Origin: Prochlorococcus sp. MIT 0801
GTDB lineage: Bacteria > Cyanobacteriota > Cyanobacteriia > PCC-6307 > Cyanobiaceae
Assembly (NCBI RefSeq): GCF_000757865.1
Contig: NZ_CP007754.1
Coordinates: 1,080,001 to 1,112,000 of the forward strand
Direction: 5' to 3'
DNA length: 32,000 nt
The translations under genes and the position numbers were made by a program. The first letter of the stretch is position 1, and every line of letters starts with the position of its first letter. A model generated the notes under the pieces. That model was not told the origin of the DNA. It saw only the letters and a list, made by a program, of their open reading frames with translations, and did no database searches. Shown in pieces: positions 7,070-27,400 of the stretch.

Positions 7070-8530
7070 GTGTCTGAGATTTCATTCAAAACACTTTCAA
7101 ATTCAGGAGTAACTTTTACACCTAGTGAATATTCCATTGGTGATTCAATAGAATGGATGAACAGCCATATCCAAAATATTCAAAGGGAAATAAATTTAGT
7201 TGACGAAAGTCCTAATCAGTTGAAAATTGATTCAGCTAAAAATACTATTGATTACACCTCAGCTTTAAGCGATTTACCTCGACTTTCATTTACACTTACT
7301 ATAGGCGATGATTTCAACTTAAGAACTGTATCTGAATCAGGATATGATACAAATATTGCTTTTAAAGAATACTCTGAAAATAATACTGGCTCCATAGGAA
7401 CAGAAGTCAATGGTTCGATATCTTTTAATGAGATTGATATAGATATAAATTTAAATGGCACACAATTATGTAAAGCAAACCTGATTGGAAGTTTTTCCAT
7501 CAATACAGTGACTAACAATGTAGATCTTTCTTCAAATATATCTAAGTTGAGTTTCGTATCATCTAATGGAGAGGAGATTTCATATAAAGGAAACCTTTCA
7601 TTTTCAAGTAATGACGAGAGTTCTAAAGATTATTTCAACTATCTAACTAACTCATCAGACATTATATATGGCACACAATATAACGATAATATTAATTCTG
7701 GCTCTGGTGCTGACGCAATATATTCCTATGGAGGCAATGATCTTATAGATGGAGGTTTAGGAATTGATACTGTCAAGCTCACGGGAAAATTTGAAGAGTA
7801 TATTTTTGCACGGTCAACAAACTCCCTTAAAACTACCGATAAAGGATCGAATCGTAGTACTCCAGATAGAGACGGTTTGTTTAATGATGGAACAAATACT
7901 CTCACAAATATTGAATATATTCAGTTCTCAGATCAAACCGTAGAAGAATCCAAAGTAGACGTTATTAAAACTTATAGCGGTAAATTTAGTGATTATAAGT
8001 TCTATAATAAAAGAGACGGAGTCTATCAAATCAAAACTGATTCTGGGTATGACGACATCACGGGTTATCCATCCTTACAATTTACGGGAGAAGCAAGTAC
8101 GAGCGCCTTCCGTGATGTGAGTGCCATCGTTGATATCAAAGGAACATTTGATCAAGTCACAGGGTTAAACACAGATTCAGGTCGTATGTTCCGCCTCTAT
8201 AACGCTTCCTTCAAACGCCTTCCTGATGCGGATGGATTAAAGTACTGGATTGATAATTTTAGTTCTGGTATAAATACAATCAGAGTCGTTGCATCCTCCT
8301 TTTTAGGTTCAGCTGAATTTAAACAACGTTATGGAGACGATGTAACCGATTCAAGCTATGTAAATACTCTCTATAAGAATGTTCTAGGTCGTGATGCTGA
8401 TACAGGAGGCTTAAACTATTGGCTAGGCCAATTGAATAGTGGAGCGGAAACAAGATATGAAGTACTCCTTGGATTTGCAGAATCAGCTGAGAATAAAGCA
8501 CTCTTTACTGACATGACTGGGTTTGGTTGA
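7070..8530 (+). CDS. large secreted-type protein with RTX-like Ca-binding nonapeptides and tandem DUF4214-type C-terminal repeats
   Basis: GTG start. GSGADAIYSYGGNDLIDGGLGIDTV resembles GGxGxDxUx repeats. The C-terminus has two DUF4214-like units (RLYNASFKRLPDADGLKYW..; YVNTLYKNVLGRDADTGGLNYWLGQLNSG...EVLLGFAESAEN). Confidence 0.75.
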   Translation: MSEISFKTLSNSGVTFTPSEYSIGDSIEWMNSHIQNIQREINLVDESPNQLKIDSAKNTIDYTSALSDLPRLSFTLTIGDDFNLRTVSESGYDTNIAFKEYSENNTGSIGTEVNGSISFNEIDIDINLNGTQLCKANLIGSFSINTVTNNVDLSSNISKLSFVSSNGEEISYKGNLSFSSNDESSKDYFNYLTNSSDIIYGTQYNDNINSGSGADAIYSYGGNDLIDGGLGIDTVKLTGKFEEYIFARSTNSLKTTDKGSNRSTPDRDGLFNDGTNTLTNIEYIQFSDQTVEESKVDVIKTYSGKFSDYKFYNKRDGVYQIKTDSGYDDITGYPSLQFTGEASTSAFRDVSAIVDIKGTFDQVTGLNTDSGRMFRLYNASFKRLPDADGLKYWIDNFSSGINTIRVVASSFLGSAEFKQRYGDDVTDSSYVNTLYKNVLGRDADTGGLNYWLGQLNSGAETRYEVLLGFAESAENKALFTDMTGFG

Positions 8531-8603: not shown

Positions 8604-9518
8604 TTATTTATTAGCCCAAGAGCAGGGCTTTGAATATTTTCTATAAATAGTTGCATGACCTTCGTTGACCAAGTTTTGCTGCAAGTTTATTCCATCGATT
8701 GTGAGCTCTGCCACTGTTCTTCCATACCGATCCTCCGTAACTCTACGAATATTGGCTTCTTTCCCTTTTACTAAATTATTTAAATAGTCTCTTGCAGCTT
8801 TCGCAGGGATAGGATCTGACCTTCTTCCTCTGATTTCTGGAGTATCAATACAGGCAAGTCTAATTTTTTCGCCTTGTGAGGTTGTACAAGTATCACCGTC
8901 ATAGCAGCTTTGAATGGTTACGGAACCGATTTCAGGTTTGTTTGATTTTCGCCCCAAAGTCTCACATGCCTCTCCATCATTATCTCTATCTAAATAAGAA
9001 TGCCCCTCAATTAATAATTGCTGTGCTTTAGACCAATCCCCAATATCACCACATTTATATTTCTTTTTCAGTTGAATTATCTTATGGCATTCAGGAAATG
9101 GTGTGAGTTCCGATTTTTCAATACTGCAAGTTATTTGACCTTTGTTAAATTGATAGTGAAACGAGGGGTTAGATTTATATGTAGTAGGTATTAAATTGAT
9201 AAAGCCGTGAACTGGGTTGCCATTACAACTATTTGAATAATCGGAATCTATGTCATAGCCACGGATATTGATTTGCGAGAAATTTAGAGTCTCATTTAAA
9301 GCTTTATTTGCTTCACATTCAGACTTGATTCTTAAAATACTATTTTGGGCGATTACTTTTTCGGACTTACGTGTGATATCTAAGATTTTAATAAGACTTG
9401 TGCTGATTAAAACTGCCAGCACTGCTATGACAACTAATAACTCAATTAAAGAGAAGCCTTTCTCTCCTCCTTGATTCAATAGTTTTCTAATAAGTTTTTG
9501 CCTTAAGCTCACATCCAT
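8604..9518 (-). CDS. modular pilin: prepilin N-terminus + pilin-sized module + Excalibur Ca-binding domain + staphylococcal-type nuclease (SNase)
   Basis: Leader MDVSLRQKLIRKLLNQGGEKG then FSLIELLVVIAVLAVL. Excalibur signature CGDIGDWSKAQQLLIEGHSYLDRDNDGEACE (aa ~155-186). SNase motifs IRLACIDTPE and DRYGRTVAEL (aa ~198-295). Confidence 0.85.
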   Translation of the reverse strand: MDVSLRQKLIRKLLNQGGEKGFSLIELLVVIAVLAVLISTSLIKILDITRKSEKVIAQNSILRIKSECEANKALNETLNFSQINIRGYDIDSDYSNSCNGNPVHGFINLIPTTYKSNPSFHYQFNKGQITCSIEKSELTPFPECHKIIQLKKKYKCGDIGDWSKAQQLLIEGHSYLDRDNDGEACETLGRKSNKPEIGSVTIQSCYDGDTCTTSQGEKIRLACIDTPEIRGRRSDPIPAKAARDYLNNLVKGKEANIRRVTEDRYGRTVAELTIDGINLQQNLVNEGHATIYRKYSKPCSWANK

Positions 9519-9642
9519 CTAGGTAATTTAGTGAGTGTGCTTCGGTCTGTTTTTAATTATGAAAAAATCTTTATAAGTCTTTTAATAAGATTTGCTCAGA
9601 TTTTAATAATCATTAGGATCATATAAGACCCTATAAATTTTT

Positions 9643-11376
9643 TTGATAGAAGCAATCCTCTCAAGCACATTTAAGATTCTTCTGTGTTTTGCAATTCCAA
9701 GCTGTATGTTTTTAATTCAGCTTTTGAATGATAGTGAAAAAAAGAAATCAAGCTATTATCGAAGGCGAGCTTTTGCATATTCAGCACTTCTTTTTATTAT
9801 TACAGATTTTATTCCACTAATATTTGATTCTATAAATAATATTTCTAATGCCCCCTTTTTAGCGCGTGAAAATGCTATCGGTGCTTTACCTTGGCTAATT
9901 CTTATTATTAAGGGATTAGAAAAAGGTTTTGAGATAGATAAATCAGATCGTGGTTTCTTTTATTCAATTTGGGAACCTTTCTCAGATAAATCTGAAAAAA
10001 TGAATAACAGAGAAAGTAAAACTAATATAAAGTATAAAGATATAAACATTCAGAATGAAAAAAAAGTTTATGATTCTCAATCTCCCTTAGGTTTATTTTC
10101 TAATAAAAAAATTAATTCGTTTGAAAAGGAAAGGACAAGTAAAAAAGATAGGAAGGACAACTCTGATTTATTAAATATAGATATGGGTTCCCAAGTCTTG
10201 GAGAGAGTTGATTTCATATTAAGTGAATCATATGATAAAGATTATTCAGATATACATATTGAACCAAATGAAAATAATTACAAAATACGTGTTAGAAAAG
10301 ATGGCATACTTCAAAGTTTGATATATATAAAAAGCTTAGAAGGAGTTCAATTAATGGCATGTTTAAAGAATTTAGCGGATATGGATGTGTCTGAAAAAAG
10401 AGCTAGTCAAGATGGGAAAATTTATAAAAAATATAAAGGCAAAAAACTTGAATTTAGATGTTCGACTGTTCCGGTGAGAAATGGTGAGTCTATGGTTTTA
10501 AGACTTTTGAAAAGTGATTCGTTTTTGCTAGATTTAGACACTTTAATTAATTTGTCATATGTAAGAAACTCTTTTAGGGATTTAATTAGCTTACAAAATG
10601 GAATTATTATTGTTTGTGGTCCAACTGGATCAGGTAAATCCACAACTCTTGCTGCTGCTTTGAGAGAGATAGACAATGGAGAGATAAAGATAGTTACAGC
10701 TGAGGATCCAATTGAATATGCTTTAGGCGGAGACATCGTTCAAACACAAGTTAATAAAGCTAAAAATCAGACATTTCCATATCTTCTCAGAACATTTATG
10801 AGACATGATCCTGATGTTATATTGATTGGAGAAACACGTGATCCGGAGACTGCGAATGCCTCCATGGATGCATCAGAAACAGGACATCTAGTTTTTACAA
10901 CATTACATGCAAATAGTGCTGCAAGTTCGTTAACCAGATTGCTAGATATGGAGATACCAAAGTATAAATTAAATGCTTCGGTTAGGGGCGTTTTAGCTCA
11001 AAGACTAGTGCGTTGTGTTTGCAAGTCCTGTAGTGAGTTACGAGAAATAAAGGAAGAAGATTCAAATAAAACTGGTATTAAATGTAATACATTAGTTAGA
11101 TATGCCTCAGTCTTACCAGAAGAAAAAAGAAATATTAATAATACAATGTATTGTGAAGAATGTATGGGTACAGGCTATAAAGGAAGAATTGGAGTTTATG
11201 AGCTGCTAATTATTGATAGGAAAATAAAGAATGCTATTTTAAAGGGAATGACGGATCTTGAAATAGAAGATATTGCAATAGAAGATGGAATGATAACTCT
11301 AAGAGAGTACGGTAAACAACTAATCTATAATCAATTAACTACTGTTTCGGAGCTTGAAAGAGTTTGCAAAATATAA
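9643..11376 (+). CDS. PilB/GspE-family type IV pilus / type II secretion assembly ATPase with atypical N-terminal membrane region
   Basis: Walker A VCGPTGSGKSTT, Walker B/Asp box DVILIGETRD, His box TGHLVFTTLHAN, and a Zn-type Cys cluster (CVCKSC ... CEECMGTGYKGR). The first ~95 aa contain three hydrophobic stretches, followed by a Lys/Asn-rich linker. The track start is TTG; alternative Met starts are at 9706, 10000 and 10183. Confidence 0.9.
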   Translation: MIEAILSSTFKILLCFAIPSCMFLIQLLNDSEKKKSSYYRRRAFAYSALLFIITDFIPLIFDSINNISNAPFLARENAIGALPWLILIIKGLEKGFEIDKSDRGFFYSIWEPFSDKSEKMNNRESKTNIKYKDINIQNEKKVYDSQSPLGLFSNKKINSFEKERTSKKDRKDNSDLLNIDMGSQVLERVDFILSESYDKDYSDIHIEPNENNYKIRVRKDGILQSLIYIKSLEGVQLMACLKNLADMDVSEKRASQDGKIYKKYKGKKLEFRCSTVPVRNGESMVLRLLKSDSFLLDLDTLINLSYVRNSFRDLISLQNGIIIVCGPTGSGKSTTLAAALREIDNGEIKIVTAEDPIEYALGGDIVQTQVNKAKNQTFPYLLRTFMRHDPDVILIGETRDPETANASMDASETGHLVFTTLHANSAASSLTRLLDMEIPKYKLNASVRGVLAQRLVRCVCKSCSELREIKEEDSNKTGIKCNTLVRYASVLPEEKRNINNTMYCEECMGTGYKGRIGVYELLIIDRKIKNAILKGMTDLEIEDIAIEDGMITLREYGKQLIYNQLTTVSELERVCKI

Positions 11377-11399: not shown

Positions 11400-11800
11400 T
11401 AAAAGAGAAATCTCTTTGACAGGGCTAACTAAAACTGTGTTAGGAACATTTTGGAAGGAAAAAGATTGATCATTCCCCTTCATTGGGTTCTAAAAAAAGT
11501 GCAGAGAAAATGATCTTTCTTGAATTGCGATGAGAGGACAGGATTTCGACGACCGTCCCCCGATCTGGGTTGATGATGCTTACTTATTACGTCATCATTC
11601 CGGAAGAAATCTAAAAAGAACTTCTTTAGTCCTGATGTTCGTTTGAAATAGCGCTTTCCAATCTTTGCTTGTTTACTAGCTTGATTTCACCTATATATTT
11701 AATTTAGGCAAAACCTCATCATGACATAATTGACTTTATGTAGTACGAGTCGATTAATAACCCCTTTAGTTAATGAAATTTCCAGAGGGGTTTCTTTTTG
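11400..11800. repeat. copy B (longest) of the structured non-coding element
   Basis: 11532..11670 aligns with copy A. 11640..11800 aligns inverted with 24445..24610. 11400..11450 (agaaatctctttgacagggctaactaaaactgtgt) aligns inverted with 28105..28150. Stops in all frames. Confidence 0.75.
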
Positions 11801-12635: not shown

Positions 12636-14366
12636 TCAGGATTTGGAATTTGGCATTAAATCAAAAGCTATAACCATTCTGTCTGAATCTGTACTAAAAG
12701 GTATTGTCCTATGATGTAAAGAAGAAGGGAATAGGACTATATCACCTATTTTTGGTTGATAAGTAAATTGAGGAGAGTTTAAATTTGAATAATTATTTGA
12801 ATTCAAACTGAATTCTATTGAACCTTCATCCTTACCAAGTGGGGGGACAACCTTCAAATAAATCACGCCACTTAACCAACCTGATTCATGAATATGCGCA
12901 GATTGATAACCTTGCTTCTTCAAAATCACATGCCATGCAAAAAGATTCTTTTTAGATGGCCATTCTTGAATAAAGGAACAAGAATGATTCATAAATTTAG
13001 AATAATATTCATCTAATTCAGTTAATATTAATGACTTGAGTTGTGAAATTGCCTTCGTTGAGTAAGAAAATAAATTTATATTATTTGGAGTGTGAAATCC
13101 ATTTCGAGTAGTATTCTCCTTAGGTTCCCATATGGTTTTTACTCCTTGTAGCTCATCAATGATTTCATTAATATATTTTTTAGAATTACTTTTATAAAAA
13201 TTTAAATTATTAATATGTAAAAAAGAGAGGGGATTTGGACAAAAGTTATTAGCAGTATATTTATTCTCCTGAGCTGCTATAAAAGAAGAAAATGCTGCTA
13301 ATCTTATATTTGATTCATCCAAGTTAGCAGTTTTTTCAATTCTGTCATAAATTTCATCAATTCTTCCTAAAGCATAAAGAGTCTCTAAAGCACATACTCG
13401 AGATATTTGCGAATTACAAGAATCTGCATCATTTAAAGCTAAATTAAAATTTCCTTTATCAAAAAATAATTGCCATCTATTCATTAATGCAGAATTAAAA
13501 CCTGGTTTAAAAGATATTGCTTCAGAATAACTTTTAAGAGCCTTATCTATTTCCCCAGTCTCTCTTAACAAATTCCCTAGAAAGTTATGAGCCTCTGCAT
13601 AATCAGGCTTCAATTCGATAGCTCGACAAATTGACAACTTAGCTTCATTTATCTTTCCAAGATCTTCTAAAATTCTACTCAAATTAAACAAATATTCTGC
13701 AGAGTCTGGCTTTAGACTAGTTGCTTTCCTTGCGGCTAATTCAGCATGATCTAATTTACCAAGATCTTTCAATATATTTGCAAGGTTTAGATGAGCTTCA
13801 GCAAAGTCAGGTTTCAATTTAATAGCTCTACATAAAGATATTTCTGATTCATTTAATTGACCAAAATCTCTTAATATATTTGCAAGGCTAAGATGAGCCT
13901 CAGCGAAATTAGGTCTAATTTCTATAGCCTTACGTATAGAAATTTCAGCGTCCTTTAATCTATTAAGGCTCCTAAATACATTTGCTAAATTGTAATATGC
14001 GTTTTCCTTGGTTGGATCTAGATCAATAGCTTTACGAAACAATATCTCTGCTTCTTTAGATTTACCAATATCATTTAATATAACTCCATAATTAGTAAGA
14101 ACTCTATAATCAATTAAACCATTTTTTATACAGTATTGATAGTGTTTAACAGCTTCTGAAATGTTACCTTTTAAATGAAGTTTAACTGCTTTATGAATTA
14201 AACCTTCCTTATTAGAAGTATGTAAATTATTACTCAAAGTAATTGGATTTATTGTATTTGAAACCTTATCTCCTTTTGAAGACTGAGAAACTAAAAAAAC
14301 CTTCACCTTAGAGGTTTCTCCAGCAGCTTTTTTAGTTTTTAGTTCTTCATTTTTGTCTGTTTCCAA
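12636..14366 (-). CDS. TPR-repeat protein fused to a TIGR02466/2OG-Fe(II)-oxygenase-like C-terminal domain
   Basis: The N-terminal half holds about 7 TPR units (..AEAHLNLANIL.DLGKL..AE...RKAI.LKPD..). The C-terminus reads QSAHIHESGWLSGVIYLKV..GSIEF...PKIGDIVLFPSSLHHRTIPF..RMVIAFDL, the pattern of the putative 2OG-Fe(II) oxygenase family common in picocyanobacteria and cyanophages. Confidence 0.75.
   Translation of the reverse strand: METDKNEELKTKKAAGETSKVKVFLVSQSSKGDKVSNTINPITLSNNLHTSNKEGLIHKAVKLHLKGNISEAVKHYQYCIKNGLIDYRVLTNYGVILNDIGKSKEAEILFRKAIDLDPTKENAYYNLANVFRSLNRLKDAEISIRKAIEIRPNFAEAHLSLANILRDFGQLNESEISLCRAIKLKPDFAEAHLNLANILKDLGKLDHAELAARKATSLKPDSAEYLFNLSRILEDLGKINEAKLSICRAIELKPDYAEAHNFLGNLLRETGEIDKALKSYSEAISFKPGFNSALMNRWQLFFDKGNFNLALNDADSCNSQISRVCALETLYALGRIDEIYDRIEKTANLDESNIRLAAFSSFIAAQENKYTANNFCPNPLSFLHINNLNFYKSNSKKYINEIIDELQGVKTIWEPKENTTRNGFHTPNNINLFSYSTKAISQLKSLILTELDEYYSKFMNHSCSFIQEWPSKKNLFAWHVILKKQGYQSAHIHESGWLSGVIYLKVVPPLGKDEGSIEFSLNSNNYSNLNSPQFTYQPKIGDIVLFPSSLHHRTIPFSTDSDRMVIAFDLMPNSKS
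13740..14170. repeat. direct repeat arm 1 (5' TPR-coding region)
   Basis: About 430 nt nearly identical (a few mismatches per 100 nt by eye) to 17020..17450. The offset is a constant ~3280 nt. Confidence 0.85.
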
Positions 14367-14488
14367 TATTTAAAACAATATATTGACATCATCATACATT
14401 AAATAGTTGTTTTTTAGCAGCCCAATTAAGTTATAATAATTATCGTATAGATCATTAGATTATTTCTGTATTTGAAGTCATTAAAGAT

Positions 14489-16186
14489 TTAATTTCTATA
14501 AATTATTAGATTACCAATAAACAAATAATCTAAATTTCCTCTGGAAAAAGAAGATAAAGCGTCTTTAGGCGACTCAACTATTGGCTCTCCAGGTAAATTA
14601 AAAGAAGTATTCAATAGAATTGGAATACCAGTCAACTTTTCTACTTCTATAAGCAATTTATATAAAATTTTATTTTGTTTTTCATTTACAGTTTGAACTC
14701 TAGCTGTGCCATCAATATGTTGAACAGCAATGAGTCTTTTATCTAGAACCTTTACATTCCTCATCATAACTGGAGAACTATCATTCATATCAAAATAGAG
14801 ATTGGCACGTTCTTCTATTACAACAGGAGCATAAGGACGGTATCTATCTCTGCACTTCATATAGTGATCTAAGAGATATTTTGTGAATCTACAAGATGGA
14901 TTGGCTAAAATACTTCGGTTACCTAAAGCTCTTGGTCCAAATTCACTTTTCCCTTGAAACCAAGCAATAACTTTTTCCTGATGAATAAGGTTAGACGCTT
15001 TTGCAAATAAATCATCATTAGAAAGAACTTCATATTTTAAATCAAAGTTTGATAATTCATTTATAGTTTCTTGCTCATTATAAGTTATGCCATAATAATC
15101 ATTTATTACTGAAAACTTACGATTAAAACTCATTTTTTGATTCACTGCTATGGCTGCACCAATGGCAGTGCCATTGTCTTCGACAGATCCATTTAAAATG
15201 ATAGATTTAAATAAATTACTCTTTTTTATTTTTTCGTTTGCAACAACATTTAGTGCAACCCCTCCAGAAAGATATAGATTTTCACATGGATATTTAGACT
15301 TAAGAAGATCTAATAACTTTAAAATTACATTTTCTGTCTCAGACTGTACTCTATTTGCTAAATTAATATGATGTATACTATCAGAAAGATCTAAACTAAA
15401 GATATTAGGTTTGTTATATATTTGATTGATTCTGGAAAAGTCTAAAGTGATTTTTCCAGAATCACTAATACTAAGTAAATCATTTTCGTTAGAATCTATA
15501 TCTTCACCATAGGCGGCTAAACCCATTACTTTTCCTGCAGAACTTCGCTTGCCACAACAATATAATGATGCCCAATCCCAATAATGACCGATGCTCTGGA
15601 GAAATCCTTTAGAATTTGAATTGTAATTTTCAATAGCAGCTATAGATGGACTGAATTTATAAATCAGGTGAGATTCTTTCCCATCAAACCAATATGCTGA
15701 AATAACTTCTTTACCACAAAAATGCGAAAAGTTAATAATTTTAGAGTGATATTTTTCTTTAATATTAAAATGATTTTTATCTTCCACTAAAGAACCACTT
15801 CCATCTATTACTAATACTATTCCTGGCTTGCTAAATCCATAATGAAGAATATATTCCATATGAGATAAATGATGAGGTACGTAGTATGTACCAAAGTAAT
15901 TTTTAGGAACTCCTCCAATATATTTGAACAATAATTCATTACTAATCTTCTTTACTTTCCATGGAGTAGAAAGTGCAATAGCATTTATATCTTCTAATTT
16001 TAATCCACTATAGTTTAAACAATAGTTTAAACATCTTTGTGCTAGTTCTAATTCATCACCAAGAGGTAGACTCTGACGTTTATAGCGCGAAATACGTTCA
16101 GCTTGAATAGCGACTTTTACTTCACCATCGCATAACAATGCTACACTCCCATTATGACTATTATTGATTCCAACAATTACATTCAT
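14489..16186 (-). CDS. NodU/CmcH-family carbamoyltransferase
   Basis: N-terminus IVGINNSHNGSVALLCDGEVKVAIQAERISRYKRQ and C-terminus GIPILLNTSFNLPGEPIVESPKDAL match the family hallmarks. Length 565 aa is typical. Confidence 0.85.
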   Translation of the reverse strand: MNVIVGINNSHNGSVALLCDGEVKVAIQAERISRYKRQSLPLGDELELAQRCLNYCLNYSGLKLEDINAIALSTPWKVKKISNELLFKYIGGVPKNYFGTYYVPHHLSHMEYILHYGFSKPGIVLVIDGSGSLVEDKNHFNIKEKYHSKIINFSHFCGKEVISAYWFDGKESHLIYKFSPSIAAIENYNSNSKGFLQSIGHYWDWASLYCCGKRSSAGKVMGLAAYGEDIDSNENDLLSISDSGKITLDFSRINQIYNKPNIFSLDLSDSIHHINLANRVQSETENVILKLLDLLKSKYPCENLYLSGGVALNVVANEKIKKSNLFKSIILNGSVEDNGTAIGAAIAVNQKMSFNRKFSVINDYYGITYNEQETINELSNFDLKYEVLSNDDLFAKASNLIHQEKVIAWFQGKSEFGPRALGNRSILANPSCRFTKYLLDHYMKCRDRYRPYAPVVIEERANLYFDMNDSSPVMMRNVKVLDKRLIAVQHIDGTARVQTVNEKQNKILYKLLIEVEKLTGIPILLNTSFNLPGEPIVESPKDALSSFSRGNLDYLFIGNLIIYRN

Positions 16187-16189
16187 GAC

Positions 16190-17605
16190 CTAAATTGGTA
16201 AAGTATTAATTAAATTTATTAAAGCTTTTCTAGCTAAATTATTTTCTTTAAATAGGGCAAGACTTCTTCGCGTAACAAGCCAGCCAATATCCTCTGTCTC
16301 ATTATCACTTATTAGGATCATAGATTTCTGAATATTAGTACAGGATAAATTCTCTACTTCTGAAAATTTGTTTATAGTATATTTATATTCACAATAACCT
16401 AATATGAGAAGAAACTTGTCTTTTTCATCTAATAATCCTAGTAATTTATTTAAATCATATTTCTTAAATATATATTTACTAAGATCAATTATATCTTCAT
16501 TTCTTTCATTTATTATTATAAGTTGTATAAAAATTGGTAATAGATTGTCTGTTAAACTTTGATCAACAAGTTTTTTTCCAAAATCGCACCAGAGTTTAAT
16601 GAATTCATTAACATAATCCTTTGTATATTTTGGTATATTTCTACAAATTTTTTCTAAAAGTTTTTTAGAATTTTCCCAATCACAATTTTCTATGATATTA
16701 ATTAGGTCAATATTTTCCAATAAATTCTCTCTGTAAAAATCAGAAACTTTAAGACCCTGAATTGAATAATATTTTGGATTTTTAGGTTCAAGCTTAGATG
16801 CTTTATTATAACTCAATATTGCTTCATCATATTTTCCTTGTTCTTTAAAGATATTTCCGAGCTTACAAAATGCATCTGCATAGTTAGGTTTATATTGAAT
16901 AGCTTTACGAGTAGAGATTTCTGAATTATTTAATTGGCCAAGATCCATCAATATATTTGCAAGATTTAAATGAGCTTCTGCAAATCCCGGTTTAATATCA
17001 ATACTTTTACGAACTGATATTAGAGCTTCGTCTAATTTTCCTAGATCTCTCATGATATTTCCAAGATTTAGATGAGCTTCAGCAAAGTCAGGTTTAAATT
17101 TAATAGCACTACATAAAGATATTTCTGATTCATTAAATTTACCAAGGTCTCTCAATATATTTGCAAGGCTAAGATGGGCCTCAGCAAAATTAGGTCTAAT
17201 TTCTATGGCCTTACGTATATAAATTTCAGCGTCCTTTAATCTATTAAGGCTCCTAAATACATTTGCTAAATTGTAATATGCGTTTTCCTTAGTTGGATCT
17301 AGATCAATAGCTTTACGAAACAATATCTCTGCTTCTTTAGATTTACCAATATCATTTAAAATGACTCCATAATTAGTAAAGACTCTATAATCAATTAAAC
17401 CATTTTTTATACAGTATTGATAGTGTTTGACAGCTTCTGAAATGTTACCATTCAAATGAAAACTTATTGCTTTTCCAATAATTTGTTCTTTAGACTCTTT
17501 AAATGAAATTTCTGAACTTAAAGTTATATTATCGCTAAAATCACTAATAGAAGAGGCGACTGTATATATTTTAACTCCATTCTTCTTACTTCCCCCTTCA
17601 GACAT
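16190..17605 (-). CDS. TPR-repeat protein with non-TPR C-terminal half
   Basis: About 7 TPR units. Residues ~50-190 are almost identical to the TPR region of 12636..14366. Its stop lies 3 nt before the carbamoyltransferase start. Confidence 0.75.
   Translation of the reverse strand: MSEGGSKKNGVKIYTVASSISDFSDNITLSSEISFKESKEQIIGKAISFHLNGNISEAVKHYQYCIKNGLIDYRVFTNYGVILNDIGKSKEAEILFRKAIDLDPTKENAYYNLANVFRSLNRLKDAEIYIRKAIEIRPNFAEAHLSLANILRDLGKFNESEISLCSAIKFKPDFAEAHLNLGNIMRDLGKLDEALISVRKSIDIKPGFAEAHLNLANILMDLGQLNNSEISTRKAIQYKPNYADAFCKLGNIFKEQGKYDEAILSYNKASKLEPKNPKYYSIQGLKVSDFYRENLLENIDLINIIENCDWENSKKLLEKICRNIPKYTKDYVNEFIKLWCDFGKKLVDQSLTDNLLPIFIQLIIINERNEDIIDLSKYIFKKYDLNKLLGLLDEKDKFLLILGYCEYKYTINKFSEVENLSCTNIQKSMILISDNETEDIGWLVTRRSLALFKENNLARKALINLINTLPI
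17020..17450. repeat. direct repeat arm 2 (5' TPR-coding region)
   Basis: See 13740..14170. Confidence 0.85.
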
Positions 17606-18182: not shown

Positions 18183-19892
18183 TTAAAAGAACGGGTTCTG
18201 TGCCTTATAAATTTCATAACCTTGATTCTCACCATCTGGTGATATTCCACTACTATCAGATCTAAAAGTAATGTGCTTCCCATCACTAGTTATCACTGGC
18301 TCCCTTAGATGACTGTCGAACTGATTAGCTTTGTCATCTAGTATCCTTTTTGTTTGACCAGTGGAAGTATTGTAGACATAAATATCAGCTATTCCATTTG
18401 TATCGTTATCATCAATATTTGTAGCCGATGATTGAAAAACTACGTAGTTACCATCTCTTGAAAAAGATGGCTGTTGTGACCATCCATCACCCTCATTTCC
18501 AGATGAACTCCCACTAATAGCATTTAACTCTCCAGAGTTCAGATCTTTGACCATGATTTGAGTATTCCCATTCCCCCCCCTGCTTGTGAACACTACTTTT
18601 GAACCATCTGAAGAGATAGAGCTTCCTCCACCTCCTCCAAATCCATACAATTGATCGCCTTGATTATTTGAGGATACCAGTGAAATTTCTGAAGTATTAA
18701 TATCTTGTACATAAAGGTTCGTTCCACTTGCTCCTGGGATTAAATCATCGCCTTCATAAACAAAACTTATTTTTGAGCCATCATCACTAATCCCAATTTG
18801 GCTAGTCGCATAGCTACCTCCTCGTGTCCTACCACTACCTGGAGAACCATCTGCTTTTGTAGGGACAACAATAAGCTCCCCTGTTTCCATATCCTTTCTA
18901 TAAATCAACCCTCTCCCTCCATCTTGTCTTTCTAAACCTGCAAATCTAGTATCAATACTTTCAAATACAACATATCTTCCGTCTGAAGACATTCTTGCCA
19001 TATCAATGCCCCAACTCGTCTGGATTTTTTCATTATTATCAAGAGTATCTACTCTAGTAATTTCACCTGTCACTAGATCTTTTCTATATATAGGTTGTGG
19101 TCCTTCACTATTACCAGCCTGACTATTTGGACCAGAAATACCGTCCAGGTCAACTGAGCCATATTCGTCAATACTTAGCAATGCATATCTACCATTGCAT
19201 GATAGATCCTGTATAAATGCTGAGTCTCCTGTTGATGGGGTACCATCTTTTGTCGAATCTATTAAAACTTTTTCACCAGATTTTATATCTACACGAAATA
19301 CGTGGCCTTCATCACCAGTAGACCAATCTCCTCGCTCAGTATAAAAATTACCATCACAGCTAATAATGCTATTTGAGCCATTCCCTGAGGATAGTTTAAC
19401 AAGTGCGTCCTCTATATCTCCACCACTAGAATTAGAACTAATACAAAGTAATCCTAAACACTCTGAGAAGTTAGTTCCTGTCTCCCCTTTAAAGCTATAA
19501 GTTAATTCATTCCCATTAGACGCCAATATAAAAGTAGGCAAAATATTCGTATCCGTAGGTATTGCACTAATTAATCCAGTTCCTGATGCTCCACTACAAC
19601 CATTAGATCCATCAGATTGGATTTGATAAAAATTTAAATTGCTTAAAGTAAATGTACCTACTTTGCCCGTGTCGGCTTTATTGATTTCACACTCAGTTTG
19701 AATTTGTTTCATGGCTGCCAACGCAGCAGTCGCTTGAGCTTTTCTCTGGAAGCAGGTAAACGTGGGGATTGCAATCGCAGATAGGACTGCCAGTACAGAA
19801 ACAACAACAACAAGTTCTATTAGAGAAAAACCTTCCTCACCTTGCTTACGCAAGAGCTTCCTTAACAGCTTAAGCTTTAAAATTTGCTCCAT
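18183..19892 (-). CDS. modular pilin: prepilin N-terminus + pilin module + large PD40/TolB-like beta-propeller domain
   Basis: Leader MEQILKLKLLRKLLRKQGEEG then FSLIELVVVVSVLAVL. The pilin module ends at ECLGLLC. The C-terminal ~410 aa hold repeated S.DG(R/S/N/K)(Y/K)(V/I).F.S blades (DGRYVVFES, DGSKISFVYEG, DGSKVVFTSRG, DGNYVVFQSSA, DGKHITFRSDS). Confidence 0.85.
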   Translation of the reverse strand: MEQILKLKLLRKLLRKQGEEGFSLIELVVVVSVLAVLSAIAIPTFTCFQRKAQATAALAAMKQIQTECEINKADTGKVGTFTLSNLNFYQIQSDGSNGCSGASGTGLISAIPTDTNILPTFILASNGNELTYSFKGETGTNFSECLGLLCISSNSSGGDIEDALVKLSSGNGSNSIISCDGNFYTERGDWSTGDEGHVFRVDIKSGEKVLIDSTKDGTPSTGDSAFIQDLSCNGRYALLSIDEYGSVDLDGISGPNSQAGNSEGPQPIYRKDLVTGEITRVDTLDNNEKIQTSWGIDMARMSSDGRYVVFESIDTRFAGLERQDGGRGLIYRKDMETGELIVVPTKADGSPGSGRTRGGSYATSQIGISDDGSKISFVYEGDDLIPGASGTNLYVQDINTSEISLVSSNNQGDQLYGFGGGGGSSISSDGSKVVFTSRGGNGNTQIMVKDLNSGELNAISGSSSGNEGDGWSQQPSFSRDGNYVVFQSSATNIDDNDTNGIADIYVYNTSTGQTKRILDDKANQFDSHLREPVITSDGKHITFRSDSSGISPDGENQGYEIYKAQNPFF

Positions 19893-20510: not shown

Positions 20511-21500
20511 TTAGTTGCAGATTGAAAGTTCTGCCAATCCCTGGTAACTACCCTCAATAGGAGTGTTAGTCATATCATCGAGATACATATTCTGGTTGGA
20601 AGCGTTTGGATTATTGAATATTGCTAATAATCGATCAGAATTAGAATCCGGACCTTCTTCAATGTTGTTGTTTAACACTAGATTAGAAAAAGAATTATCA
20701 AAATTGTCTCCATTGGACCATTCCCAGCTACCGTTTGGATTCCTTTTTGCACCTGTCCAAAAATGATTGATTGACCATTCATTTGGTGCCCAGGAATGAT
20801 TATCATCAGAGTACTGATATTTTGCTTTAGAAAACTCTTCTCCTATCCAAATGTTTTCCTCTAGGTCTGTAACGGAAACAAGATTGCCTCCTAAGGCAAT
20901 TGCATTTGCATTTGCATCGGTCCAATTAGGACCGTCAACTAAAACATAGGCCGAGCAACCTTTTTCGATATAAGTATCTTTTCTGACAAAAGAATTAGCT
21001 TCTATATTCGCCTGAAATGTACTACCTCCTGTGTAACCATTGGCTACATTGCAAACCAAACCCAATCCTTTGGAGAGATCAGTTCCTGTTTGACCTTTAA
21101 AGCTATACGTTAATTCACTACTATTAGTCGCCAATATGAAAGTAGGCAATATATTTGTATCGGTAGGTATTGCACTAATTAATCCTGTTCCTGATGCTCC
21201 ACCACAACTATTAGATCCATCAGATTGGATTTGATAAGAATTTAAATTGCTTGAAGTAAATGTACCTACGTTACCTGTATCAGATTTATTAATTTCACAT
21301 TCAGTATGAATTTGTTTTATGGCTGCCAATGCAGCAGTCGCTTGAGCTTTTCTCTGGAAGCAGCTAAACGTGGGAATTGCAATCGCAGACAGGACTGCAA
21401 GCACTGACACAACAACTACAAGTTCAATTAAAGAAAAACCTTCCTCACCTTGCTTACCCAAGAGCTGCCTGAAGAGTTTTAGCTTTAAAGTTTCCTCCAT
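20511..21500 (-). CDS. modular pilin: prepilin N-terminus + pilin module + C-type-lectin-like domain (variant A)
   Basis: Leader MEETLKLKLFRQLLGKQGEEG then FSLIELVVVV. The C-terminus has a CTLD pattern: CSAYVLVDGPNWTDANANAIALGGNLVSVTDLEEN..WTGAKRNPNGSWEWSNGDNF ... LSICN. Confidence 0.8.
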   Translation of the reverse strand: MEETLKLKLFRQLLGKQGEEGFSLIELVVVVSVLAVLSAIAIPTFSCFQRKAQATAALAAIKQIHTECEINKSDTGNVGTFTSSNLNSYQIQSDGSNSCGGASGTGLISAIPTDTNILPTFILATNSSELTYSFKGQTGTDLSKGLGLVCNVANGYTGGSTFQANIEANSFVRKDTYIEKGCSAYVLVDGPNWTDANANAIALGGNLVSVTDLEENIWIGEEFSKAKYQYSDDNHSWAPNEWSINHFWTGAKRNPNGSWEWSNGDNFDNSFSNLVLNNNIEEGPDSNSDRLLAIFNNPNASNQNMYLDDMTNTPIEGSYQGLAELSICN

Positions 21501-21816: not shown

Positions 21817-23068
21817 TTGACTAAAACAGTCGATCAACCAAGTTGGGTAAAAGAATTTCGAAAAGCAGTTAAAGCTTCTATCCCAAAAGGTTGGTTAGTC
21901 ATGCAAGGTAATAAAGAATCAACAAGGGATCAAATTCGTAAGGATGCTAAAAAAATTGTAGATTTAACAATTCCATACGCATGGAAAGAATCAGATTGGT
22001 CTAGTGCACTTTTAAGAATTAGATCAGCAGCAAAAGCTTATGAAGAATCAAATCAAAGATTAGATATAAAAACTTGCTTCAATATTGCTCACACAGTTTC
22101 AAGTGAGACAGAAATTAACTTGGAAAAAACAATCGAGACTTATAGGGAATTTAAAAAGATCGTGTAAAAGATTCGACTAGGCGTAGCAAATATCACCCTG
22201 TCTTTAAGAACCTAATCAAGGCCACTAGAAATACTTCCAAAGCACCTTTAAATGGGCCAGTACTTTGCAAGCTTGCACTTAAACAATGGCAACAAGGAAC
22301 ACCAATAAGAAGACACATGCACCTAGCCCTTTTTGGGTTTCTTCGGTTTTGTGTTCAGGAACAGCAGTTAGAGTCCACATAGTTGCCCCCAGCCGTAACA
22401 GATAAAGATGTAGTCACTACTAAAAAAAGAATTGGTTATCCCTTAACTGATTAACAAATTCTTCGATTATTAGATTCATTCCCCTTAGATGAAATTGGAA
22501 ATAAATGGAGATTTGCTTTTCGATATATGGCTGTTTATGGCCTAAGACCTTAGGACCTCCGAACTATCCACACCCGCAATTTTGGTCAAGAGATTTGGAC
22601 TAATTACGAAAACTCGAGAGGTGGTAAGAAAGGAGAAAAACCAGGGGCTAGACGTTTGTTTATATCCGTTGCTGGTCCATGACATTGATGGTCCAATTAA
22701 CTGGCATCTAAAAGAACAATTAGCGATATGTGAAAAGGAAGGTTTTAAACGACTTTCCCCCGATTTGTAAAGAGGGTAATGCTGGCGATACTTTTAGAAC
22801 TTATTTAAGTCGCAGAAAAGTTTGGGAGGCTATCAGAACAGAAGTTTCCAGAGAAAGTCAAGAATTAACTGCTTATTCATTCCGGCATAGATATCCCTAC
22901 TGCGGTCACAATCGACCTAAAGCGGATGGTAGTTATAAAGCTCCAAAACTAATTGCTGATGCAATGGCTCATTCATTAGATACTCATCTTTTGATCTATT
23001 CCAGATTCCAAACGAAAGATCAAGCTAGTGCTTTTGACGAAACATCACTCCTAGTTAAAGGTGCTTAA
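21817..23068 (+). pseudogene. tyrosine recombinase / phage-type integrase, multiply disrupted
   Basis: The frame is broken into at least 4 pieces by stops and frameshifts. Box I is AVYGLRP*DL (a stop where Glu is expected). Box II is AYSFRHRY. The C-terminus is AHSLDTHLLIYSRF with the catalytic Tyr. Confidence 0.8.
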
Positions 23069-24444: not shown

Positions 24445-24610
24445 CAAGAAACCCCTCTAGAAATTCCAATAACTAAAGGGGTTATTAAATTGACTCGTAC
24501 TATATGAAGTCAATTTATGTCTTGATGAGGTTTGGCCTCAATAAAATTTATAGGTGAAATCAGCATAGAAAACAAGCAAAGCTTTGAAACCCCTACCTCA
24601 TATGACTGAA
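24445..24610. repeat. copy D of the structured non-coding element (proximal part), right arm of the inner inverted repeat together with 24196..24440
   Basis: Inverted match to 11640..11800. Contains stem-loops aacccct/aggggtt (24450-24483) and attgact/agtcaat. Confidence 0.8.
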
Positions 24611-25624: not shown

Positions 25625-26608
25625 ATGGAGGAAAGTATAAAGCTAAAACTCTTCAAGCTGCTCTTGGGTAAGCAAGGTGAGGAAGGTTTTTCTTTAATTG
25701 AACTTGTAGTTGTTGTGTCAGTGCTTGCAGTCCTGTCTGCGATTGCAATCCCCACGTTTAGCTGCTTTCAGAGAAAAGCTCAGGCGACTTCTGCACTGGC
25801 AGCAATGAAACAAATACAAACTGAGTGTGAAATTAATAAATCTGATACGGGTAGCGCAGGTACGTTTACTTTAAGTAATTTAAATTCTTATCAAATCCAA
25901 TCAGATGGATCTAATGGTTGTGGTGGAGCATCAGGAACTGGATTGATTAGTGCAATACCTACTGATACAAATATATTGCCTACTTTTATATTGGCTTCTA
26001 GTGGTAATGAATTAACTTATAGCTTTAAAAAACAGACTGGAAATAACTTTCAAGATTGCTTGGGAATGCTTTGCAATACTTTCAGAGGCCAACAAACAAG
26101 AGACTTTGTCCTTTCAGATCAATTTGAAGACATTGTTATTGAAGAAACCTATATAGAGCGAGGTTGTTCTGCTTATGCATGGGTTGGAGGTCCAAGCTGG
26201 CTAGAAGCTCAAGCAAATGCTAAAAAGCTTGGTGGCAATTTGGCAACGATTAACGATAAAGAAGAGAATGATTTTCTAATGAATATTTTCAATGAAGAGG
26301 GAAGGAAACATATACCCGTACAACAAGGTCATCTTAATTTACATATCGGTCTAACAAAGACTGTCGAAGCTGATGAGGGCGCACCATATGGTAATGGTTG
26401 GATCTCAGGGGAATCTTCACTCTATAGACCATCCACTTGGGGGGTTTGTAACAGTGAATGGTGTGGGATGGGAACTGATCCAGATGGAGATCATACTTCT
26501 TTTATTTTAGATCTTAATGATCAAAATCCATCAGCAAATTGGAATGATTTTCCTAATTGGCAAGGCGAAGGAGTGGGACTTGTAGAAATACCAATATGTA
26601 ATAACTAG
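25625..26608 (+). CDS. modular pilin: prepilin N-terminus + pilin module + C-type-lectin-like domain (variant B)
   Basis: Leader MEESIKLKLFKLLLGKQGEEG then FSLIELVVVV. The pilin module ends at DCLGMLC. The C-terminus reads CSAYAWVGGPSWLEAQANAKKLGGNLATINDKEENDFL...LHIGLTK...GNGWISGES...WNDFPNW...EIPICNN. Confidence 0.8.
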   Translation: MEESIKLKLFKLLLGKQGEEGFSLIELVVVVSVLAVLSAIAIPTFSCFQRKAQATSALAAMKQIQTECEINKSDTGSAGTFTLSNLNSYQIQSDGSNGCGGASGTGLISAIPTDTNILPTFILASSGNELTYSFKKQTGNNFQDCLGMLCNTFRGQQTRDFVLSDQFEDIVIEETYIERGCSAYAWVGGPSWLEAQANAKKLGGNLATINDKEENDFLMNIFNEEGRKHIPVQQGHLNLHIGLTKTVEADEGAPYGNGWISGESSLYRPSTWGVCNSEWCGMGTDPDGDHTSFILDLNDQNPSANWNDFPNWQGEGVGLVEIPICNN

Positions 26609-27145: not shown

Positions 27146-27400
27146 TTTCTTTTAAAGGGACTCGTGCATAGTACGACTACCAACCGAACCCAGTCATGTC
27201 AGTAAAGAGTGCTTTATTCTCAGCTGATTCTGCAAGTCCAAGGAGTACTTCATATCTTGTTTCCGCTCCACTATTCAATTGGCCTAGCCAATAGTTTAAG
27301 CCTCCTGTATCAGCATCACGACCTAGAACATTCTGATAGAGAGTATTTAAATAGGTTGAATCGGTTACATCGTCTCCTTAACGTTATTTAAATTCAGCTC
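27146..27400 (-). pseudogene. truncated DUF4214 C-terminal fragment; right arm of the outer inverted repeat
   Basis: Inverted near-identical copy of 8311..8565 with two in-frame taa stops and no 5' part. Confidence 0.85.

Follow-up and report, generated by a model that had tools for sequence, protein, structure and literature searches.

How is an assembly ATPase of the type IV pilus and type II secretion family held at the inner membrane if the domain by which its relatives dock there has been exchanged for a hydrophobic region? The question is raised by a gene of Prochlorococcus sp. MIT 0801 that lies in a stretch of 32,000 nucleotides (nt) of contig NZ_CP007754.1 (positions 1,080,001 to 1,112,000; this whole stretch is called the window here, and coordinates are given in its own numbering) and that encodes a protein of 577 amino acids (aa) with a PilB/GspE-type core. 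GspE is held at the membrane through the binding of its N1E domain to the cytoplasmic domain of the bitopic protein GspL, and PilM plays such a role in the type IVa pilus (T4aP). A preliminary description of the window had proposed that the usual cytoplasmic N1 domain is replaced by a membrane region in this protein, and the analysis reported here bears out that proposal. We consider it probable that the gene encodes a full-length fusion of a membrane anchor, a juxtamembrane motif, a disordered tether and an extension-ATPase core, and that this tethered paralogue uses the shared pilus machinery of the cell. The features discussed below are listed in Table 1.

The window protein belongs to the GspE/PilB superfamily of extension ATPases. 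The Pfam family T2SSE (PF00437) covers aa 185–573 with an E-value of 3.8e-103 and 345.4 bits against a gathering cut-off of 24.9, and the GspE, PilF and PilB chains of the PDB align from about aa 155–190 to about aa 571–576, the best of them being GspE 4pht (E = 2e-79). Motif conservation was scored in an 11-sequence alignment of the tethered-ATPase subfamily, in which every hallmark listed in the preliminary description is in place: the Walker A columns G326–T334, the Asp box E354–E358, Walker B D389–D400 and the His box H415/H422 are invariant or nearly so, and the cysteines C460, C463, C504 and C507 are invariant. A tetracysteine zinc-binding cluster of this kind is present in GspE and PilB and absent from the PilT-type retraction ATPases. 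Assignment to the latter was rejected because the cluster is present and the PilT family profile scores low (172.6 against a cut-off of 319). Whole-protein scores fall below the NCBIfam equivalog cut-offs both for GspE (TIGR02533, 386.2 against 630.25) and for PilB (TIGR02538, 360.3 against 675.65). When the full-length protein and three neighbours were run against the PADLOC defence models, the ATPase gave only a weak match in the P-loop region (mad8, 21.9 bits, E = 2.7e-5); a defence-system or phage origin was rejected, there being no meaningful match in PADLOC or PHROGs.

The differences begin upstream of this core. T2SSE_N, the soluble N1 docking domain, was not detected by Pfam anywhere in the 577-aa protein, and the NCBIfam profiles of GspE and PilB begin to match only at their positions 74 and 147, respectively, so that the usual N1 domain is absent. 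Such an absence has precedents, since this domain (NTD1) is optional in the superfamily and can be lacking in type IV filament ATPases (PMC10191384). The N2 domain that precedes the catalytic domain is retained, as PDB chains of GspE and PilB align across the region from about aa 165–190 onward, and a low-confidence AlphaFold2 (AF2) model gives aa 179–300 a secondary structure of helix and β-sheet, as expected for N2.

The N-terminal 180 residues contain, as had been described, three hydrophobic stretches followed by a Lys/Asn/Ser-rich linker. The mean Kyte-Doolittle (KD) hydropathies of the three (Table 1) compare with a maximum of 1.13 in aa 180–577, and each is predicted to form a transmembrane (TM) helix. 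An AF2 model of the N-terminal 120 aa, built from a 28-sequence alignment, has a predicted local distance difference test score (pLDDT) of 84 and a predicted template modelling score (pTM) of 0.74, and consists of three long helices. Foldseek found no structural neighbour in the PDB for this confident model (best E = 3.7), no Pfam family matched aa 1–180 at E ≤ 1, and a profile of the N-terminal 120 aa had no meaningful PHROG or defence match. Across the family the first loop carries on average 5.3 Lys or Arg residues, whereas the N-terminal tail has 0; the positive-inside rule then predicts an N-out/C-in topology, which would place the ATPase in the cytoplasm. The tether of about 65 residues is predicted to be disordered, which argues for proximity instead of rigid docking.

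Is this extension translated, and from which start? Upstream of Met181, 180 codons stay open in DNA of 72% A+T. From composition the probability of such a run is 8e-8, none of 200,000 shuffles stays open, and the remaining two frames contain 16 and 26 stops over the same stretch; the preliminary description was right to find an open frame of about 540 nt notable. We compared seven loci that encode proteins of the same rare class (the window, L001–L004, L007 and L008). The extension is kept in all seven: in each, the frame is open above the automated start and codes for helix 1, and in L002, L003, L004, L007 and L008 this conserved helix lies ahead of the called start. Aligned with the TTG at 9643 of the window there is an ATG in L001 and L004, a GTG in L003 and L007 and a TTG in L002, so that six of the seven loci have one of these codons at this position; none was identified in L008, where the frame is open. 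The ATG that the window has at codon 22 is not kept in L003, which has ATC there. The database entry for the window protein (P0001, 550 aa) begins at a TTG, codon 28, inside TM helix 1, and several homologue calls are likewise truncated. A gene call of 578 aa exists in the cluster of P0003, a close relative, and the 550-aa start is probably wrong.

Selection on the encoded sequence points the same way. By the Nei-Gojobori method, dN/dS among the window, L002 and L003 is 0.23–0.47 for the anchor (aa 1–115), 0.32–0.87 for the linker (aa 116–185) and 0.13–0.14 for the ATPase (aa 186–577), and the anchor is therefore under purifying selection as a protein. It is recognisable across the seven diverged loci, down to about 44% identity, and the linker, though it drifts fast, keeps the frame in all but one of the seven. 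On this comparative evidence the N-terminal extension is real coding sequence. Within about 50 nt ahead of the start (9590–9642), the window shares with L002 and L003, the three closest loci, a motif TTTGCTy ... ATTAGG..TAwAAG that ends some 15–20 nt before the TTG or GTG and could represent a conserved promoter followed by a very short leader; a generic scan for promoters and terminators gave matches no commoner than in shuffled sequence.

The anchor has relatives of its own. Exhaustive phmmer and profile searches found a family of 33 marine picocyanobacterial clusters (defined by P0122, P0124–P0129 and P0149–P0175), with E-values down to 1e-37 and phmmer matches to stand-alone proteins at 1e-5 to 1e-8. 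Most members are stand-alone proteins of 116–165 aa, and others continue into a C-terminal DUF1651, SHOCT or zinc ribbon domain. The window protein bears the full signature of the family, which consists of P19, W23 and Q26, then Y38-x-R-R-R-x-F44, then W84 and G91, then G104-x3-S-I-W110, together with the three hydrophobic blocks. Y38, R40, R42, W84, G91 and G104 are invariant and R41, P19, W23, Q26, S108, I109 and W110 nearly so, F44 is one or the other, and the family residues of the juxtamembrane motif RGFFYSIWEPF are kept in fused and stand-alone members alike. As judged from these alignments, the anchor is a module of an unnamed family of small picocyanobacterial membrane proteins. The stand-alone members that could be placed were found in variable regions of single-cell assemblies of Prochlorococcus type (L005 8001–8642 and L006 8001–8690), the former next to an XisA-like recombinase. 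Other searches returned less: a word-indexed search with the N-terminal 120 aa as a single query gave 2 matches only, a scan of species-representative genomes with the N-terminal alignment gave 34 pattern matches of which none was confirmed, and 5 loci were recovered from metagenome contigs, two of them already known.

The full-length query recovers two classes of Prochlorococcus proteins. Those of the abundant class, of about 550 aa, have a soluble N-terminus ('...LSLQWCRDNLVVPL...ITIAVGN...') and match the query only over its C-terminal 67–72%. The rare class amounts to some dozen 90% clusters, where the conventional paralogue has hundreds; its members range down to 53% identity and share the hydrophobic N-terminus (LLCW.IPS..W.IQ, YYRRRAFAYS, DFIP, PWLI, RGFFYSIWEP). 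The two classes have the same Walker, Asp box, His box and four-cysteine elements, and the conventional extension ATPases of picocyanobacteria (PilB of MIT0801, Pro_MIT0801_1244, and 'PulE' of MIT9211, P0019) are 60–65% identical to the window protein over N2 and the catalytic domains. They differ at the front, where the conventional paralogue has a soluble region of about 150 aa and an acidic linker, whereas the window protein has its three hydrophobic helices and a basic/polar linker.

With the conventional PilB of its own genome the window protein shares 63% identity, the homology starting exactly at aa 181, as against 39% identity with the classical PilB of an LLIV strain. Such figures show that it is paralogous to the former. 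In addition, P0008, a protein of the tethered class, retains in its linker the acidic motif 'FTQEAVLTALEEF' that the conventional paralogue has, and the conventional Prochlorococcus paralogues fall equally below the GspE and PilB equivalog cut-offs. Taken together, the identities, the linker motif and the like sub-cut-off scores point to a lineage-specific duplicate whose N-terminus was exchanged for the membrane module. Inside the marine picocyanobacteria, a pilus extension ATPase would have been duplicated and one copy would have had its soluble N-terminal domain swapped for a module taken from the small membrane proteins.

Two proposals of the preliminary description do not survive, namely that no partner genes are adjacent and that a membrane-anchored ATPase might bypass a missing platform protein. 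A divergently oriented prepilin gene with a staphylococcal nuclease (SNase) domain lies 124 bp from the start of the ATPase gene, and three more prepilins are encoded in the window. With the window included, pilins or pil clusters are neighbours in six of the seven loci: in L001 and L004 the gene adjoins a secretin/PilN-O/PilM/PilC/PilT cluster, which in L001 also holds the conventional ATPase, and L003, L007 and L008 have a convergent pilin gene on the downstream side. The tethered ATPase co-occurs with a complete PilQ/PilMNO/PilC/PilT/PilB set. Prochlorococcus sp. MIT 0801 itself carries the T2SSF platform protein PilC (AIQ97334.1) and PilA1 (AIQ97338.1), and PilQ, PilC, PilB and PilA1 have been listed for this strain and none of them for other LLI isolates (Aguilo-Ferretjans et al., PMC7994388, Supplementary Data 1). 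Since PilC is present in the genome, the idea of a bypass is unsupported; a role of the anchor as replacement for the PilC/GspF platform (T2SSF, PF00482) was rejected for the same reason and because the anchor has no T2SSF similarity.

The reading that we favour can be set out as follows. An N-out/C-in inner-membrane anchor of three helices (aa ~1–95) would be followed by the RGFFYSIWEPF motif, the disordered tether and the N2 and catalytic domains. The hexamer would sit beneath the inner membrane, anchored by as many as 18 helices of its own instead of by docking of N1 to a partner of the GspL, PilM or TcpR type. ATP hydrolysis would drive the shared PilC platform, for which contacts of N2 and the C-terminal domain (CTD) with PilC would still be needed. 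The protein would then be an alternative motor that probably handles pilins of another set, with the neighbouring enzyme- and lectin-headed prepilins as candidates; because the gene is repeatedly adjacent to pilin genes, here those of large 'headed' prepilins, a dedicated pilin set is the most economical guess. Models in which the platform turns and the ATPase is the stator, as summarised in PMC10191384, would accommodate a ring that is tethered permanently.

Among described systems, the closest in the PDB and NCBIfam is GspE (Vibrio EpsE, PDB 1p9r, 4ksr and 4pht), with the same N2E and CTE domains and the same four-cysteine zinc subdomain. In both cases the hexamer would be held at the membrane, with the difference that the window protein has neither N1E nor a GspL-like domain and is predicted to be anchored covalently, through its own TM helices. 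The T4aP ATPases PilB and PilF (Geobacter 5tsg, Thermus 5it5, Myxococcus 3jc8) align end to end over N2 and the CTD, and the genomic company of the tethered class (secretin, PilM/N/O, PilC, PilT) is T4aP-like; their N-terminal domains are soluble, unlike the predicted membrane anchor. ComGA of Firmicutes competence is an extension-type ATPase that naturally lacks N1, and its profile matches the window protein over aa 192–457 (235 bits against a cut-off of 300), but ComGA is soluble and has no TM region. The extension ATPase has been described as cytoplasmic, and in the toxin-coregulated pilus TcpR is the membrane partner to which the N1 domain of the ATPase docks (PMC10191384). TcpR has no sequence or fold relationship to the anchor; it has one helix as against three, and the anchor as a rule forms a single polypeptide with the ATPase. 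The window protein is thus predicted to be part of a known machine with two departures from its described members, in that it has no soluble N1 and is not soluble and cytoplasmic. A transmembrane-anchored PilB or GspE is not described in the literature that we searched, which is not proof of novelty, and independent cases may exist elsewhere.

If the fusion is what it appears to be, a natural and conserved self-anchored ATPase would imply that covalent tethering is compatible with function, and the tethered form would offer a handle on what the N1 domain and its receptors contribute. The analysis also corrects a mis-called start, defines an unnamed family of small membrane proteins that appear to serve as N-terminal anchors for several unrelated domains, and draws attention to an island that encodes prepilins with enzyme and lectin heads, in a phototroph that is among the ocean's most abundant. 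The gene is rare and lineage-restricted, and its impact is moderate.

Several points weigh against the tethered-motor reading. The TM helices are predicted from hydropathy and AlphaFold only, the third is just 15 aa long, and the AF2 model of the full-length protein (11 sequences) is poor, with a pLDDT of 52 and a pTM of 0.30, and was left out of the fold search. We infer the start at the TTG of 9643 from the alignment of loci. The anchor may serve localisation or regulation instead of replacing N1 docking. In L002 no pilus gene was found within 10 kb of the ATPase gene, and the link between the tethered ATPase and the neighbouring modular pilins, which may exist, has adjacency as its sole basis. 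Finally, in L001 a frameshift of 1 nt within an A7 run of the linker (L001 9990–10025) divides the homologue into a 117-aa membrane protein and a 465-aa ATPase, so that either the covalent link may be dispensable or this copy may be broken or mis-sequenced. The 465-aa open reading frame (ORF) begins at an ATG inside the A7 run, L001 is a draft assembly and the case is a single one; the split could reflect gene fission, phase variation or an assembly error.

These points leave room for other explanations, which we take in falling order of probability. The first, possible and in our estimation rather unlikely, is that a separate and reduced type IV filament system exists with the tethered ATPase as its dedicated motor. 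The anchor would spare this ATPase a docking apparatus of the PilM/N/O type, and the headed prepilins (nuclease, C-type-lectin-like, β-propeller) would form short surface fibres or a secretion piston. Such a system would amount to a toolkit of enzymes and adhesins displayed on pili, for instance for the degradation of extracellular DNA in phosphorus or nucleotide scavenging.

It is doubtful that the protein works outside pilus biogenesis altogether, by sequestering PilC or PilM in a regulatory or competing role or as the motor of another membrane process, its anchor being a generic targeting tag of island-borne genes. The occurrence of the same anchor on the unrelated DUF1651, SHOCT and zinc ribbon tails and of stand-alone members in variable islands would suit this view, as would the separation of the gene from the pil cluster in three loci (the window, L002 and L003); the scores below the equivalog cut-offs lose their weight in its favour because the conventional paralogue lies just as far below them. 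Against it, the catalytic motifs and the four cysteines are invariant at an ATPase dN/dS of 0.13, six of the seven loci have pilin or pil-cluster neighbours, and the mad8 match is too weak to count as a notable defence match.

A further alternative, which we regard as improbable, accepts the coding sequence and divides its products: the gene would yield both the full-length protein and an internally initiated soluble ATPase, or the two halves would act as separate receptor and ATPase in the manner of TcpR and TcpT of Vibrio cholerae, which the split form in L001 would resemble. The stand-alone small proteins of the anchor family lend this some plausibility, and so does the L001 break in the linker, with an ATG right there. 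The six other loci, however, are continuous ORFs in which no internal start codon is conserved, and the lone split, which is found in a draft assembly, may result from an error or mark a pseudogene.

That only a soluble ATPase is made, from Met120 (10000) or Met181 (10183), with the upstream 360–540 nt a 5' leader or an unrelated in-frame small ORF, is very hard to maintain. This reading could draw on the shorter database entry, on the various downstream starts chosen by automated callers in homologues and on the separate 465-aa ATPase ORF of L001, which starts from an ATG in the linker. The preliminary description had allowed for initiation at either of these methionines; neither is conserved, however, the aligned residues being I, I, S or similar in homologues of 80–83% identity. 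Nor would a leader be expected to show the dN/dS of the anchor and its conservation down to about 44% identity, or to lead into a fast-evolving AT-rich linker that six of the seven loci maintain in frame and without stops, quite apart from the chance probability of the open frame. The last alternative, a decaying duplicate with an N-terminus scrambled by rearrangement, has almost nothing to recommend it beyond the rarity of the class, its island location and one frameshifted copy, given strong purifying selection on anchor and ATPase, ORFs intact across lineages with saturated synonymous divergence and an N-terminus that belongs to a bona fide conserved protein family.

Table 1. Features of the tethered ATPase gene and the prepilin genes of the window
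Feature	Position	Strand	Details
Full coding sequence, putative membrane-tethered PilB/GspE-type ATPase	9643..11376	+	577 aa; TTG start, TAA stop; from the ORF list
Predicted TM helix 1, FKILLCFAIPSCMFLIQLL	9670..9726	+	aa 10–28; N-terminus predicted outside; KD 2.09; AF2 helix 2–29
Basic loop ...KKKSSYYRRR, predicted cytoplasmic	9727..9768	+	aa 29–42; 6 K/R in the window protein
Predicted TM helix 2, AFAYSALLFIITDFIPLIF	9769..9825	+	aa 43–61; KD 2.01; AF2 helix 33–65
Predicted TM helix 3, AIGALPWLILIIKGL, short	9874..9918	+	aa 78–92; KD 1.97 over 15 aa; AF2 helix 71–91
Conserved juxtamembrane motif RGFFYSIWEPF	9949..9981	+	aa 103–113; G104 invariant, S108/I109/W110 nearly so
Lys/Asn/Ser-rich tether, predicted disordered	9982..10182	+	aa 114–180; AF2 pLDDT 23–42 over aa ~111–179
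N2 and catalytic C-terminal domain, GspE/PilB-type	10183..11373	+	aa 181–577; T2SSE; 4pht; dN/dS 0.13–0.14; 63% identity to PilB
Walker A GPTGSGKST	10618..10644	+	aa 326–334; columns G326–T334 invariant or nearly so, P327 at at least 90%
Tetracysteine cluster (zinc-binding type) C460-x2-C463 ... C504-x2-C507	11020..11163	+	four Cys invariant in the subfamily alignment
Prepilin leader/N-methylation, Excalibur and staphylococcal nuclease	8604..9518	-	304 aa; N_methyl 1.5e-6, SNase 1.4e-13, Excalibur 1.6e-4; NCBIfam IV_pilin_GFxxxE
Modular prepilin with PD40 β-propeller repeats	18183..19892	-	569 aa; Pfam N_methyl, PD40; GFSLIEL at aa 21
Modular prepilin, C-type-lectin-like head	20511..21500	-	329 aa; N_methyl 8.6e-6; Lectin_C weak, 0.07
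Modular prepilin, C-type-lectin-like head	25625..26608	+	327 aa; N_methyl 8.4e-6; Lectin_C 5e-4, just below cut-off

The product of the SNase-prepilin gene is a candidate substrate or partner of the tethered ATPase; it would be a nuclease on a pilin stem, with the Excalibur calcium-binding motif. The three larger prepilins have nearly identical N-terminal regions of about 150 aa and differ in their C-terminal heads, the lectin-like pair ending in ...PICN, and together look like a cassette system of 'headed' pilins. MIT0801 encodes at least one further such pilin, of the lectin type, outside the window (AIQ97601.1).

Other parts of the window yielded some minor observations. The Yfr13 small RNA (RF02364, gathering score 39) has matches at 11705–11778 (+; 41.8 bits), some 330 bp downstream of the ATPase stop codon, and at 24464–24539 (−; 78.1 bits). 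The gene at 7070–8530 (+) encodes a 486-aa protein with RTX calcium-binding repeats and two DUF4214 domains, and near-identical spurious antisense ORFs at 8319–8501 (−) and 27209–27391 (+) point to another DUF4214-coding copy, on the minus strand at about 27.2 kb. Three genes at 12636–17605 (−) encode a TPR and 2OG-Fe(II) oxygenase protein of 576 aa, a carbamoyltransferase of 565 aa and a TPR protein of 471 aa; the two TPR proteins have long identical stretches in common, and a carbamoyltransferase also flanks the ATPase homologue in L002. At 22582–23068 (+), two short overlapping ORFs (…AYSFRHRY…ADAMAHS…) without a Pfam match resemble, on visual inspection, the C-terminal portion of a tyrosine recombinase, a hint that this region contains a degraded integrase and originated as an island.

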